Position numbers and translations under genes: made by a program
In this document: positions 30,671 to 57,539 of the stretch, piece after piece
Layout of the letters: each line of letters starts with the position of its first letter
Numbering within the stretch: the first letter of the stretch is position 1
Notes under the pieces: model-generated
Database searches by the model: none
What the model was told of the DNA's origin: nothing
Seen by the model: only the letters and a program-made list of their open reading frames with translations
Assembly (NCBI RefSeq): GCF_032116555.1
Contig: NZ_CP134949.1
Location: forward strand, 1,240,001 to 1,304,000
Length of the DNA: 64,000 bases
Direction of reading: 5' to 3'
Source: Halorarum halobium
Lineage (GTDB): Archaea > Halobacteriota > Halobacteria > Halobacteriales > Haloferacaceae

Positions 30671-30981
30671 TCGACCGCCTCGAAAGCCCCCGCGGTTATC
30701 GACTCGGTGCGGCCGCTGCGCTCCTCGCATCACTCGCTTCGCTCGTTCGCTGTGCTTCTCGTCCCTCGCACGAGCGGTCTCGCTACGCTCGACCGCCGCG
30801 CCACGTGGATTGCCCAACCGATGCGGTCGGCGCGTGCCGGCGGGCCTCCGTGCCCGCCGGGTGCGCGCGAGGGATGAGCGAGGAGCGCAGCGACGAGCGA
30901 ATCGGCTGGGGAGGCGTGTGGCTGTGCAGTGGCGGGGCGGGTGGGACTGAAAGGGGCCGCGGGGGCTTTCGAGGCAGTCGA
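30671..30981. mobile_element. non-coding MITE-like palindromic element with 25-bp terminal inverted repeats
   Basis: tcgaccgcctcgaaagcccccgcgg (30671-30695) is the reverse complement of ccgcgggggctttcgaggcagtcga (30957-30981) at 24 of 25 positions. Internal segments are shared with 36561-36810. No target-site duplication seen, so mobility is inferred. Confidence 0.6.
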
Positions 30982-36518: not shown

Positions 36519-36560
36519 CGGCGAGTCCCGGCGGGGCGACCAGACGCCGTGCGGACGGCG

Positions 36561-36810
36561 CGCGGCGGCCAAGCGAAGCGCGGCCGCTCGTGCGAGGGAC
36601 GAGAAGCGCAGCGAACGAGCGAAGCGAGTGAGTGAGCATCGCAGGAGGCTGGGGAGGGCGAGGTCCGGTGGCGGCGCGGGGTGGGACTGAAAGGGGCCGC
36701 GGCTGTCGGCGAACCCCGACCCCTCAAGCACCGCAGGAACGAGGCCGAAGGCCGAGTGACGAGGAGCGCAGCGTGGGTCGCGGGAGCCGACAGCCGCGGG
36801 GGCTTTCGAG
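36561..36810 (+). repeat. intergenic structured repeat, same family as 30671-30981 and 54539-54906
   Basis: 36561-36630 matches the reverse complement of 30731-30800. The GGGACTGAAAGGGG...GGGCTTTC module contains a perfect 14-bp stem (36697-36710/36786-36799). Confidence 0.85.
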
Positions 36811-36900
36811 ACAGGCTGAGCGACCGACGGAGAACACACATTCCGGTTCACAGCGTAGCGGGTCGGAGGGCTTTTGCCCCGCCGCACCGCCCCCGAGAGC

Positions 36901-49772: not shown

Positions 49773-52196
49773 TTATGCGTTCACCGTGAGTTTCTCCGCC
49801 TCGACGCCGTCGACGTTGACGTCGAACTCCGCGTCGTCCGCCACCGTGTACTCCAGGGTCGCCTCCTCGCCGCCGGCGACGCTGGGTGACCACTTCACGA
49901 ACCACTCGCCGTCGAGGTCGACGACGTTCGCGCCGTCGGAGACGCCGCTCGGCTCCGCGGAGACGATGTCGGTCACGTCGAGCTCCTCGGTCCGGTCCGA
50001 GTGGTTCTCGACGACGAGCCTGACGGTGTCGCCGTCGTGCTCGCGCTCGACGCTGACGTTGTTCATGATGCGCGCCATCGCCCCCTCGATGTTCGGCCGC
50101 TCGCGCCCGACCACGGCCGACACCTTGTCGGCCATCTCGGGCAGGATGCGGCCGAGCACGTCCTGCTTCTCGCGGCGCTTCTGGAGCGAGCGCCGCTTGT
50201 TGAGATACGACTTCAGCTCGCGGGCCGCCTCGCGTACCGCCAGTTCGATCTCGTCTTCGATCTCGGGCAGGTTGGCGAGGGCGTCCTTCGACTCGCTCGT
50301 GAACGGGACGTTCGTGGAGGCGACGTGGATCATCACGACCGCCGGCCCGCTCGGCATCCCCGAGCCGCCGGGCTGGTCGAGCCCGTAGTTGCGCCAGCCG
50401 ATCGACTTCACCACGTCGGTCGTCGCACACGCGCCGCGCTGGTAGACGAGCGGGACGCGGTTGGCGAATCGGAGCAGGTCGACCTGACCCTCCGAGTCGA
50501 GTTCGCCGCCGTACGCGATGCCGGCCTCGACGATGAACGGGTCGCCGCCGTGGACCTCGGCGTCCCGCGTCGCCGCCGCGTAGAAGTCCGCGTCGAACTC
50601 CTTTTTCAGTCCCGCCTCGACGAGTTCGTCGGTGATGGGCGCGAGACAGTCGGTCGGCGGCGCGAGGATGTCCGTCTCGCGCATCCCCTCGAGCAGGGCG
50701 GAGGCCGCGTCGCGGTCGCCCGCGACCTCCTTCACTTTCGGGAGGTCGTCGGGGACGGTGGCCATCCGGGACCACAGCGTCTCGACGACGTTCTCGCGTG
50801 CGGTCTCGCCGACGGTCGCGTCGTCGTACTCCTCGGTGTCGGCAGCGGCCTCGTCGACCCACGCGCGGAGGGTCGCCTCCGTCGCCCTGTGCCGTTCGCC
50901 GCCGGCGGCGATCCGCCGGGCGAGCCGTTCGGCGAGGCCGTGTTTCGTCTCGTCGTCCTTGCGGGTCGAGGTCGCCTCGTCGACGACGGCGTACAGGTCC
51001 GACGTCAGCCGGTCGCGTGCCTCCGCCTCGCCGTCGGGGTCCGAGTCGTATCCGGCCAGTTCGGCCCAGGCGGCTTCGACCGCGTTGTCCCGGACCGTGC
51101 TCCCGAACGTGACGTCGTACTCCTCCTCGGTCGCGTCAGCGACGTTGTCGACGACCTCGCGGAGCTCGTGGCGGGCCGTCAGCTCCCGGGAGGTGAGCGT
51201 GCTCGTGACCTCCGCGGCGAAGAAGTCGGTCGCCTCGGATCCCTTGTTCGAGACGGCGTCGGTGAGCGCCGAATCGAGATCGGCGTCCACGCCGGCGCTC
51301 CAGCCCATCGCCCGGCCGAAGTGGCGGTCGCGGAAGCCGGCACACACCTTGTCGGCGGTCTTCTTGCCGACGCGGGTGAACTCCTCCTGGAGGAAGCCCG
51401 AGACGCTGTAGGACTCGGTCGCCTCCAGCATCTTGATGAGCGTCCCGAGTTCGACGCCGTGGGGGTGCGGGCGGATCTCCTCGGTCTCGGCCGGGAGCTG
51501 GTCGGTGCCGCGCTCGAACTTCAGCGGCTCGTCGGAGCCCGGTTCGCGGAGTTCAAGCCGCGCGTGGGGGTTGACGACCGCGGTGTGCTTGATGTAGTCG
51601 TGGAGCTGTGCCCGGGCGCGCATGTTCGCCTCCATCTCGACCTCGATGCGCGTGCCGTGCGAGCGGTCCCAGGCGGTCGGCTCGTCGGCCTTGATCTCCG
51701 GCTCGTTCGTGTCCGTGTCGATGATGAGCTCGAAGTACTGGGCCTCGGCCTGTCCCTTCGGCCGGCTGGTGATCTTCGCCGGCTTGCCGGAGGTGAGCTG
51801 CGAGTAGAGGACGGCCGCGGAGATGCCGATCCCCTGCTGCCCGCGCGACTGCTCGCGTGCGTGAAAGCGGGAGCCGTAGAGCAGCTTCCCGAACACCTTC
51901 GGGAGCTGTTCCTTGGTGATGCCGGGCCCGTTGTCCTCGACGATCAGCCGGTAGTAGTCGCCGACCTCGCGGATCTCGACGTAGACGTCCGGTCTGATGC
52001 CGGCCTCCTCGCAGGCGTCGAGGGCGTTGTCGACCGCCTCCTTGACGGCGGTGACGAGCCCCCGTGCCCCCGAGTCGAAGCCCAGCATGTGCTTGTTCTT
52101 CTCGAAGAACTCGGCGATGGAGATCTCGCGCTGGCTCTCGGCCAGCTCGTCGGCGATCCCCTCCTCCTCGCCGAGCTGCGACTGGAACGATGACAT
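49773..52196 (-). CDS. top6B: DNA topoisomerase VI subunit B
   Basis: [47 protein letters not shown]. Confidence 0.97.
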
Positions 52197-52225
52197 TCTC
52201 GTGGACCCTCCTACCGGGCGGGGGC

Positions 52226-52259
52226 TTAAAACGGCTTCTCCAGCGGAGTGGAAGTGAAA
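52226..52259 (-). promoter_or_regulatory. top6B promoter: TATA box plus upstream TTTCACTTCCA motif
   Basis: Minus-strand TTTTAA at 52226-52231, 30 nt before ATG. Minus-strand TTTCACTTCCA at 52249-52259. Confidence 0.6.
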
Positions 52260-52428
52260 ACCACCAGCCGACGGGCGCGGAAATCCGGTCCTACGACCCG
52301 AAACGGCATCGTTCCGGACCGAAATCGTGCCGTTTCGGACCGAACTCGGCGCGGTTCCCGTACCCAGGGCAGTCCGCAGGAAACCCTCGCCAGAACGCCC
52401 AGCGGGCCGGTAGGGCCGCCGTACTTGA

Positions 52429-54477
<2,049 letters not shown>

Positions 54478-54538
54478 ATGGATCGTCTGCGATATTCATC
54501 CTCAATCGAGCGACGTCGACCGGACGACGGGGAGGCGC

Positions 54539-54906
54539 GAAAGCCCTCGGGCTCTCGGCTCGGGGGCCTCGCTGCGCTCCTCGCCTCGGTCGCTCCGCTC
54601 CCTCGGCTGCGGTGCTTGCGTCGTCCGCCGTCCCCGAGAGCCCTCGCCCTTTCGGAGTCCGCCAGGAGGCGGTCGTCCCACTTTGGACGCATGCACGCTC
54701 ACACCCGGCGGCTCGCACGCGCCGGGGTGTGGAGGAGCGCCGCTTCCCGGCCTCCCCGCCAGCGCCGTCGGCTGAACAGCCGGCAGGGTGGGAATCCGGA
54801 AGGGGGCGCACGCTCGGCGAACCCCGGACCCGCAAGCACCACAGGCGAGCGTAGCGAGCCGAGGAGCACAGCGCGGTCCGCGGGAGCCGAGCGTGCGCGG
54901 GCTTCC
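54539..54906. repeat. two inverted copies of the structured intergenic repeat between gyrB and gyrA
   Basis: Minus-strand module at 54539-54660 and plus-strand module at 54786-54906. Both carry CAAGCACCRCAG and GAGGAGCRCAGCG cores enclosed by long stems. Confidence 0.85.
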
Positions 54907-54980
54907 GCGAACGTTCCCGCTGTTCCCCGTAGAGACGAATCGACTGACAGCAGCCACGACGCAACCGAAGGCAGATACGA

Positions 54981-57539
54981 ATGAGTTCAGAGCCACCAGT
55001 CGACCCCGGCGACGTCAGAGCCGCCCAGGTCGAACACGTCCGCATCGAGGAGGAGATGGAGCAGTCGTACATCGACTACGCGATGTCCGTCATCGCCGGC
55101 CGGGCGCTCCCGGACGTCCGTGACGGCCTCAAACCGGTCCACCGGCGCATCCTCTACGCGATGCACGAGATGGGGCTCACCTCGAATACGAGCCACCGGA
55201 AGTCCTCCTCCATCGTCGGCGAGACGATGGGTGATTACCACCCGCACGGCGACTCGGCCATCTACGACACGCTCGTCGGCATGGCCCAGGAGTTCTCCAT
55301 GCGCTACCCGCTCGTGGACGGCCAGGGGAACTTCGGGTCGATGGACGGCGACCCCGCCGCGGCGATGCGGTACACGGAGGCCCGGATGGCCCCCATCGCC
55401 GAGGAACTGCTCGAGGACATCGAGCGGGACACCGTCGATTTCGCCTCGAACTACGACGATCGCCTGCAGGAGCCCGAGGTGCTGCCCTCGGCGTACCCGA
55501 ACCTGCTGGTCAACGGCTCGACCGGCATCGCCGTCGGGATGTCGACGAAGGTTCCCCCGCACAACCTCGGGGAGGTCATCGACGCGACCATCGAACTCAT
55601 CGACGACCCAGACGCGACAGTCGGTGACCTCATGCAGCACGTCAAGGGGCCCGACTTCCCGACCGGGGCGAACATCGTCGGGCGCAACGCCGTCCGGAAA
55701 GCCTACGAGACCGGCCGAGGACGCGTCCGCGTCCGCGCCGAGTTCGAGGTCGAGGAGTTCGACGGTGACCGACGGCGCATCGTCGTCACCGAGGTCCCCT
55801 ACCAGCAGAACAAGGCGCGCCTCGTCGAGCGCATCGCCGAGGACGTGAACGAGGGCGTCCTCGAGGGAATCTCCGACCTGCGCGACGAGTCCGACCGCGA
55901 CGGCGTCCGCGTCGTCATCGAACTGAAGCGGGGCGCGAACGTCGAGGTCGTGAAGAACCAGCTCGTCGAGCACCACCTCGAACGGACGTTCGGCGTCATC
56001 AACCTCGCGCTGGTCGACGGCCAGCCGCGCGTGCTCACCCTGAAGGAGACGCTCGCGGAGTACATCGACCACCGCAAGGAGGTGGTCACCCGCCGGACCG
56101 AGCACGAACTCGGCGAGGCCGAGGACCGCGCGCACATCCTCGAGGGCCGGCTGAAGGCGCTCGACAACGTCGAGGACGTCGTCGAGACGATCCGGAACAG
56201 CGAGGACCGCGACGAGGCGAAGGCCGCGCTGCGCGAGACGTTCGACTTCTCGGAGGCCCAGGCCCAGCACATCGTCCGGATGCAGCTCGGCTCGCTCACC
56301 TCGCTCGAGGCCGCCGAGATCGAGGAGGAGTACGAGGACGTGATCGCCCGCATCGAGCGACTGGAGGAGATCCTGGCCTCCGAGTCCGAACTGCTGGGCG
56401 TCATCAAGTCAGAACTCCGCGAGATCAGGGAGGAGTACGACGACGAGCGCCGGACCGGCTTCGTCGAGGACACCGGCACCGTCACCCACGAGGACCTCAT
56501 CCCCGAGGAGGAGTCGGTCGTCGTCGTCAGCGAGGACGACTACATCAAGCGGATGCCGGCCGCCGAATTCCGCGCGCAGAACCGCGGCGGGAAGGGCATC
56601 ATCGGCGCGGATCTGAAGGAGGGCGACCGCGTCTCCTCGGTGTTTCTCGCCTCGACCCACGACTACCTGCTCTGTTTCACCACCCACGGACAGGTGTACC
56701 AGCTGAAGACGTACCAGGTGCCCGAGATGGGCCGCACGGCCCGCGGGAAGTCCGCCGTCAACGTGCTCGATCTCGACGACGGCGAGGAGATCACCGCGGT
56801 CGTCAACTGCGACGACATCGGCGGCGCGGGTGCGAGGGACGGCGACGACGCTGACGGCGACGCGGACGCCGCGACCGGCGTCGACGGGGACGAGGCCCCG
56901 GACCAGTACCTCACGATGGTCACCCGCGACGGCTACGTGAAACGAACCGCGGGCGAGGAGTTCCGAAACATCCTCTCGACGGGCATCCGGGCCATCAAAC
57001 TCGAGGACGGCGACGAACTCGCCGACGTCGAGGTGACCGACGGCAGCCGCGACCTCGTCATCGGCACCCGCGGCGGCATGGCGATCCGGTTCGACGAGTC
57101 CGAGGTGCGTGCGATGGGCCGCTCCGCGCGCGGCGTCCGGGGCATCGATCTGGAGGCCGGCGACAGCGTCGCCGGCCTGGCCGCCATCGACCCGGCCCAG
57201 CACGACTGGGTGCTCACGGTGACGCGAAACGGCTACGGCAAGCGGACCGACCTCGACGAGTACCGCGTCCAGAGCCGCAACGGCAAGGGGCTCATCGACA
57301 TCAAGACGAACGAACGGAACGGCCCGTCCATCGCGGTCGAGGCGGTCACGTACGGCGATCACCTGTTCGCCATGAGCGAGCGCGGCCAGATCGTGCGCAC
57401 CCGCGTCGAGGACGTCTCCACCATCGGGCGGAACACGATGGGCGTCACGGTGATGGCGCTCGACGAGGCTGACTCGGTGGCGACGGTCGACGTGCTGCCC
57501 GCCGCCCGCGTCGAGGATTCGGCGGACGACGACGAATAA
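54981..57539 (+). CDS. gyrA: DNA gyrase subunit A
   Basis: [33 protein letters not shown], GyrA box QNRGGKG, C-terminal pinwheel repeats. Confidence 0.98.

Follow-up and report, generated by a model that had tools for sequence, protein, structure and literature searches.

A folded, dispersed non-coding module of Halobacteria that also caps the leader upstream of ssb on T4SS plasmids

Introduction

What is a folded non-coding module of about 125 nt, recurring between genes along a 64,000-nt stretch of the Halorarum halobium genome (the window), and what does it do there? A sequence-only reading of the window had described three full modules and several partial ones, and regarded them as a structure-selected element outside any named family, serving either as single-stranded DNA (ssDNA) handled by a trans-acting HUH/Y1 enzyme or as a structured RNA. 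Here we ask how far the element extends, whether its structure is selected, in which nucleic acid it would fold, and where it might have a function.

Results and discussion

Modules within the window

All the copies that the sequence-only reading had placed in the window are present, and their stems, closing helices, core motifs and GNA loops match its description. That reading had overlooked the pairing of the two copies at 54.5-54.9 kb in a single head-to-head doublet, the domain upstream of the first copy, and the size of the family, all set out below. The first full module (36680/36683..36807, + strand) comprises an S motif, a closing helix P1 (GAAAG/CTTTC), a GGG/GGG internal loop, a 14-bp helix P2, tandem GA, the cores AAGCACC and GAGGAGCGCAG, and an apical c(GAA)g loop. 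It is preceded by an upstream "U" domain (~36557..36679, +) of further GNA mini-hairpins, GGCTGGGGAGG at 36647-36657 and a linker, which is common to many other loci and near whose start, at 36557, matches in relatives begin. On its other side, a variable 3' tail (36808..36860, +, end approximate) lies between the module and the upstream region of an AIR-synthase (purM-like) gene. The remaining two full modules form one head-to-head doublet between gyrB and gyrA: the left arm (54539..54660, −) has an apical c(GGA)g and the plasmid-type start CTGGCGGACTCCGAAAGGG, the same as at plasmid locus L039, the central spacer occupies 54661..54786, and the right arm (54787..54906, +) carries the P1 variant GGAAG/CTTCC and an apical c(GTA)g. 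The partial copies at 30.7-31.0 kb make up a second doublet, in which a left half-arm (30682..30757, −) retains the apex, G core, P2 3' arm and E end, and a central region with a U domain (30758..30939, +; GGCTGGGGAGG at 30904-30914) leads to a minimal 31-nt module of the form S-CCGCGG-E (30940..30970, +), whose absent core is most simply explained by deletion between two CCGCGG copies at the foot of P2. The neighbours of the window modules are gyrB and gyrA, a TPP enzyme and the AIR-synthase gene, and a bifunctional-nuclease gene and a TraB-family gene. In the same region (49773-57539), a Topoisomerase VI B gene is divergent from gyrB-gyrA.

The window belongs to a 3.68-Mb assembly of three contigs. 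On contig C1, GAGGAGCRCAGCG occurs 61 times and GGGACTGAAAGGGG 65 times, each against 0 in a shuffle, and given these counts a chance origin of the window modules is excluded. Folding of the module strand of the three full copies gave z-scores of -2.5, -3.0 and -0.05 as DNA and -4.3, -4.6 and -1.4 as RNA, such that the third copy is not significant by itself.

Copy number and taxonomic range

A profile built from 50 copies recovered 131 module arms in this genome, 0 of them inside genes as called by a simple gene caller, and the family occupies more than 100 loci, arranged as singles, 19 head-to-head pairs and 18 short core-deleted forms, often behind a U domain. The gene-orientation contexts of 106 loci (33/30/29/14) follow the genomic background (477/553/418/239). 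A pattern of the two cores was present in 156 of 251 Halobacteria genomes, at 0 to 56 copies each (reversed control, 0), and in 0 of 126 other genomes searched from the phylum. The element is class-wide, real, structure-selected and non-coding. Phage records yielded no module match; viral contigs yielded 20 matches to the S motif only, with a module after none of them, and 0 to the plasmid-type core. The S motif has a likeness to archaeal ORB boxes, which was put aside: the TTCC half is missing, and the motif pairs in cis. In one genome (G020, loci L001-L012), doublets are tail-to-tail with outer flanks that are inverted repeats as well, and in several of them a conserved GTGTCAACGTTAGC precedes S by about 45 nt.

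Covariation of the helices

The closing helix P1 covaries, with four sequence variants overall: in this genome, 65 copies read GAAAG/CTTTC and 20 GGAAG/CTTCC, with 1 discordant (n = 86), and a further 59 modules from fetched loci, 57 of them concordant, add CAAAG/CTTTG and CGAAG/CTTCG. For P2, 6 of the 68 full copies were dropped as out of register; in the remaining 62, 742 of 806 cells are Watson-Crick, as against a mean of 522 and a maximum of 577 in shuffles; when only the 40 distinct arms are counted, the figure is 479 of 520 versus 320. In an alignment of 23 sequences, 96% of cells are paired, both sides have changed in 15 of 25 pairs, and 0 of 500 shuffles scored as high, these shuffle controls being of a kind that ignores relatedness. 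The unpaired parts of the module (GGG/GGG, tandem GA and the two cores) are its conserved parts.

Pairing of this sort might also arise without function, in quasi-palindromes whose covariation comes from template switching between arms and gene conversion between loci. Among the fetched loci, the core has an inverted orientation between the P2 arms in three distinct copies and the normal one in 70, which shows that template switching between arms does happen and can create some covariation; in addition, mosaic sharing between loci is extensive, and at one orthologous site (L245/L246) the module diverges as fast as its flanks. However, template switching would erase mismatches, yet 60 of 62 copies retain the GGG/GGG internal loop, and the non-Watson-Crick cores hardly vary. 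Nor would such a process be expected to hold the G and A of the GNA loops while leaving N free, on one strand only, or to fix the position of the plasmid copy across families (both described below), and we consider functionless quasi-palindromes very unlikely.

Folding as DNA or RNA

RNA favours GNRA tetraloops, and tandem GA pairs are found in RNA as well. The apices of the module are c(GNA)g in 53 of 59 measured (N being A in 20, G in 15, C in 15 and T in 3), and GNA-type triloops number 150 on the module strand versus 13 on the other. In two genomes of another genus, tetraloops counted by hand comprise 17 GNYA, 4 GNRA and 1 other (n = 22), and ANC triloops are present too. The d(GNA) loop closed by a C-G pair is a very stable DNA loop (PMC3201870, whose reference list also names the sheared A-C pair and d(cGNNAg)), and sheared GA pairs in tandem are known as motifs of DNA, as are GNNA loops (PMC10085684). 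G-T cells account for just 23 of 806 cells in P2 (2.9%), and modules in tandem contexts lie sense to flanking genes 42 times and antisense 30 times, with no clear strand bias. A search of the window against Rfam returned 0 matches at the gathering score, and that of seven loci a single sub-threshold match (28.7 vs 70 bits).

From the DNA-type loops, the few G-T cells, the absence of a sense bias and the lack of an Rfam match, we infer selection on single-stranded DNA; the module most probably acts as an ssDNA fold of its purine-rich (GNA) strand. The proposal that it is a structure-selected element of ssDNA type without a named family is thus borne out by the covariation, the loops and the Rfam searches. 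The same observations disfavour the structured-RNA alternative, by which a small RNA, ribozyme or cis-regulator would be made from many loci. Good RNA-fold z-scores for two of the three window copies, the tandem GA pairs and TTTATAAA, a possible TATA box flanking the element on both sides in one genus, all speak for an RNA; against these stand the DNA motifs at the apices, the rarity of G-U-type cells, the indifference to the strand of flanking genes, the Rfam result and, on plasmids, a GNA strand that is antisense to the backbone genes. On balance, a structured RNA seems highly improbable.

Search for a mobilising enzyme

REP and REPIN elements have a GTAG/CGTC foot and RAYT transposases. The module resembles REPs, REPINs and BIMEs in forming more than 100 extragenic, orientation-free hairpins with inverted doublets, lineage-specific expansion and mosaic arrays, but its unit is much longer, it has no GTAG/CGTC foot, and no RAYT/Y1 gene is flanked by copies. 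MITEs are marked by terminal inverted repeats that match a transposon and by a target-site duplication; doublets of the module give inverted ends, but singles and tail-to-tail forms exist too. The module may also resemble integron attC sites. A further comparison is with the PATEs and SMR-A elements of Haloquadratum walsbyi (PMC3119063), which are likewise haloarchaeal, transposase-free, palindromic and heterogeneous, undergo core deletions and are targeted by other short palindromic repeats; like PATEs, the module is short, non-coding, palindromic and present or absent between relatives. Compared by description, it differs from them in its tie to a plasmid ssb leader. In a literature judged mostly by titles and the openings of abstracts, and with the PATE sequence tables outside the comparison, we found no description of the element.

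A PATE- or REPIN-like, non-autonomous element would be one explanation: an IS200/IS605 TnpA or a RAYT-like HUH enzyme would mobilise it in trans, P1 would be the pairing of guide and cleavage site, and the plasmid copy would be an old insertion or a hotspot. Such an origin would account for extragenic, orientation-free copies, patchy copy number, inverted doublets, core deletions, nested palindromic inserts as known for PATEs and the four covarying variants of P1, and many genomes of the class have Y1_Tnp (81 of 121). Yet the enzyme that the sequence-only reading had postulated found no support: Y1_Tnp has no match in this genome or in four other high-copy genomes, and although PATE palindromes resemble IS605-type ends, a profile search of 30 IS200 tnpA loci (±1.5 kb) detected the module at 0 of them (best E 0.27). 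Nor was a copy seen in the flanks examined of the genome's single tnpB. An autonomous partner gene was sought between module arms and beside low-copy modules, without success: no gene enclosed by two arms stood out in this genome, and no neighbour gene is common to 20 loci from low-copy genomes. PATEs have a conserved targeting oligonucleotide of 4-6 nt and no target duplication; at four polymorphic sites, with flanks about 80-96% identical and junctions not base-resolved, no conserved target oligonucleotide was evident. Movement in trans by such an enzyme is, in our view, quite unlikely, and on chromosomes the element behaves like REPs and PATEs without the transposase association that defines them. 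The single tnpB (G000:C1:488790-488990) lies just 3' of a tRNA-like sequence, and the genome has no tnpA.

A conserved leader upstream of ssb on plasmids

The plasmid copies offer a different context, and their position upstream of ssb, which is new, is the main clue to the function of the module. There, the module caps a conserved, folded non-coding leader of 550-660 nt. The module matches 62 plasmid records at 78 places, mostly one per record; six such plasmids were examined, and in four of them an OB-fold SSB-type gene lies at a distance of about 450-600 bp, one has a TFIIB gene with a similar N-terminus, and one is interrupted by an IS110. The leader matches 178 plasmid records at 279 places, with several copies on some plasmids. 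Among the 60 leader matches listed, an SSB/RPA-type gene lies under 42 and a TFIIB gene under 5, and 47 of the 60 alignments stop within a few bases of the module's CTTTC end. Leaders are present in 61 of 121 genomes of the class, and of 30 leader loci 26 stand before an SSB-type ORF and 1 before a TFIIB-like ORF (3 gave no start). The module itself is found at 27 of 36 leader loci; two lack it, one is divergent, and in six near-identical loci the module ends are kept and the core is replaced. Both strands of the leader give good folds (z about -5.3), and an alignment of six leaders, one row of which was mis-cut, revealed no conserved TATA-like duplex. Beyond CTTTC, about a dozen downstream contexts can be distinguished by eye in 31 loci, the ssb side being constant; related plasmids nonetheless remain alignable past CTTTC. 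Hypermutation of the tail, as would be expected of an error-prone primer, was not borne out: tail identity of 0.65, versus 0.82 downstream, fits a neutral spacer.

In the present genome, a second copy of ssb plus leader sits in a low-GC chromosomal island (G000:C1:2747800-2749210), and leader fragments occur in low-GC islands at G000:C1:2938130-2938374, 2974326-2974636 and 2978303-2978424; these are probably remnants of integrated plasmids. On two plasmids, C2H2/HNH-repeat endonuclease genes are located directly 3' of ssb (L036:2322-3455 and L039:2269-3270).

Plasmid backbone, primase and candidate relaxase

Contig C2 (G000:C2:62000-110000; loci L041, L042 and L075) is a plasmid that encodes a T4SS, an AEP-like primase, SSB, TFIIB and ArdC. 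Its genes run in the order VirB6-like, VirB4, VirD4-like, a 674-aa protein, small genes, HalOD1, module, leader, ssb and tfb, with ardC further on, and it also encodes Orc1/Cdc6 and an integrase. The same order of tra genes, primase, small genes, module, leader, ssb and tfb, with co-oriented backbone genes, recurs on pHTS96 and pNG600, which belong to other plasmid families; a third named plasmid shows the ssb side only and lacks tra genes within 20 kb. For the backbone genes, including those downstream of the leader, the GNA strand serves as template. The gene content of C2 matches the core described for Halobacteriales plasmids (Orc1/Cdc6, SSB, TFIIB, an ArdC-like protein and a T4SS; PMC13532300), as found on pHdsl9-3-like T4SS plasmids; the available text of that source describes no oriT, relaxase, non-coding leader or hairpin.

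The 674-aa protein that follows VirD4 has an invariant DxD motif, and relatives of it are fused to D5-type helicase domains. Its structural model (pLDDT 87; a single-sequence model, at pLDDT 45, was unusable) weakly matched AEP primases and a DnaG-type zinc domain (best E 0.016, no match reaching 0.001), and by these weak fold matches the protein appears to be AEP-like. On pHTS96, the same slot is taken by a different, PriS-like primase.

All plasmid records with module or leader are typed non-mobilizable and thus carry no known relaxase. A scan covering part of the 132 listed ORFs (47 proteins from C2 and one C1 island, plus 25 further plasmid proteins) detected no known relaxase family. MOB_C relaxases have a PD-(D/E)xK-type fold. 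The C-terminal part of the 1467-aa VirD4-like protein (L041:7957-8634) carries an H...PD...ExE...K motif that is conserved in 90 relatives, and this PD-(D/E)xK-like domain might be a candidate relaxase; it has no Pfam or PDB match, and an atlas search of the tail was blank.

C2 has two further features. Two co-oriented ORFs 3' of ssb, one full and one partial, match the NCBIfam family "biosurfactant protein 1", for which a role in plasmid establishment seems more likely. The contig also carries anti-phage genes (L076:3940-16340), comprising a CBASS-like set (SMODS, ThiF-JAB and TIR-SAVED), GmrSD, a ThsB-like TIR protein and an 8xMP protein.

A possible priming signal or transfer origin

The plasmid context admits two readings. 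In the first, the module would be the oriT hairpin of the plasmid or another strand-transfer site, nicked near CTTTC by an enzyme that is possibly the PD-(D/E)xK-like domain fused to VirD4, and the chromosomal copies would be oriT-like substrates of rolling-circle-type copying. The location between the tra operon and the establishment genes is suited to this, as is the sharp end of plasmid homology at CTTTC, beyond which the neighbour varies and ssb remains constant; the non-mobilizable typing together with the VirD4 motif, and a fixed 57-nt duplication (see below) that could reflect staggered nicking, point the same way. However, the VirD4 domain lacks a family or structural match, some plasmids have several leader copies and related ones can be aligned across CTTTC, and a nick of the GNA strand at this place would send the tra genes first and ssb and ardC last, contrary to the usual order. 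We therefore regard a transfer origin as possible but unlikely.

The second reading, to which we would give about an even chance, is that of an ssi/Frpo-like ssDNA signal of conjugative plasmids with non-autonomous derivatives on chromosomes. Its functional home would be the conserved leader upstream of ssb (sometimes tfb) on haloarchaeal plasmids and integrated elements that bear a T4SS and a primase. The GNA strand would be the strand that enters the recipient, where the leader would fold and act like bacterial ssi or Frpo; the plasmid primase, or the host transcription machinery, would recognise the fold, and complementary-strand synthesis would begin just 3' of the CTTTC end and proceed through the leader into ssb, tfb and ardC. 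Under this proposal, these would be the first genes that can be expressed.

Two bacterial systems provide the precedent. Frpo is situated upstream of ssb in conjugative plasmid F (PMC11541004), and it shares with the leader an extended non-coding fold immediately 5' of a plasmid ssb gene, a backbone with ArdC, and a folding strand that is the template of the downstream genes. Frpo lies in the leading region as defined by oriT, and its promoter elements form as a duplex in the stem; among the six aligned leaders, no conserved TATA-like duplex was seen. The leader differs in being archaeal, without -35/-10 logic and 550-660 nt long, and in that its terminal hairpin has been amplified on chromosomes. 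For plasmid RSF1010, priming by the AEP primase RepB' takes place 3' of the ssiA hairpin (PMC4434180). Like the module, ssiA and ssiB are hairpins between single-stranded flanks, and their plasmid likewise codes for an AEP-fold primase of its own; but ssiA is 40 nt long and serves vegetative replication, whereas the module has about 125 nt and several non-canonical internal loops.

As an ssi/Frpo-like signal, the element would be a precise cis-acting candidate for the transfer of common haloarchaeal T4SS plasmids, for which the literature covered describes no oriT, relaxase or single-strand signal. It would also allow predictions of the strand transferred and of a start site about 33 nt beyond the hairpin, and it comes with a candidate primase. 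Copies on pHV4 make the hypothesis testable in Haloferax volcanii, and the module family is a natural covariation data set for non-canonical DNA motifs.

Turnover on chromosomes

Chromosomal copies come and go between relatives. The gyrB-gyrA gap, widened here by the doublet and its flanks, measures 509 bp, against 180 bp without modules in a second genome (G001) and 13, 4, 24 and 97 bp in four further genomes; a module occupies the purM site here and in G002, and the site is empty in G001; and the doublet at 30.6 kb is present in all three species of the genus, each time with different modules. Four sites in another genus display filled, empty, decayed and nested alleles. Identical copy pairs in this genome span 150 nt at a distance of 6 kb and 118 nt (S to E) at a distance of 899 kb, and how alike two copies are shows no relation to how far apart they lie in the genome (rho 0.05, p 0.13). 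Four further families of short palindromes are concentrated at modules (19 of 22, 8 of 9, 5 of 5 and 20 of 30 copies, vs 3.6% of the genome), much as SMR-A elements are at PATEs (PMC3119063). Families of this kind, at least four in number, insert in or beside modules, for example at G000:C1 104300-104750, 452800-453100 and 905490-905570.

End repeats recur at +57 nt; this holds for 10 of 64 ends in the present genome and for 17 of 44 in another genus, with minor peaks at 72, 51 and 114 nt. In this genome, the 57-nt duplication begins about 24 nt inside the module and, counted from the CTTTC end, extends from about -24 to +33. In several loci, the repeat mirrors the arm of its own locus, a pattern indicative of recurrent, measured events; a single old duplication, inherited since, may nonetheless explain the repeats, above all in the other genus.

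If the ssi/Frpo-like reading holds, the chromosomal singles, doublets and core-deleted forms would be non-autonomous derivatives, arising and turning over by copying and conversion between sites, and the fixed 57-nt duplication would be a mark left at the fold by measured priming or nicking. Movement from plasmid to chromosome, rather than the reverse, is suggested by the breadth of the plasmid occurrence and its fixed position. A replication or transfer signal of plasmids would then have seeded a REP-like family of chromosomal repeats for which no transposase was found. A resident plasmid is now neither needed nor sufficient: genomes with no leader match have chromosomal expansions (27 copies in G068, 15 in G041 and 10 in G060), and G031 has leaders with no match to the core. 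In a bolder version, the priming signal would have turned into a transposase-free selfish element whose fold recruits a plasmid or host primase-polymerase at a measured distance and so drives copying, site replacement and the 57-nt duplications; such an element may also ease the establishment of chromosomal DNA after transfer. We think this version possible but unlikely. In the one genus in which the possible TATA box TTTATAAA accompanies the element (L124, L154 and related loci among L115-L183), it occurs in both flanks, within decaying 57-nt repeats.
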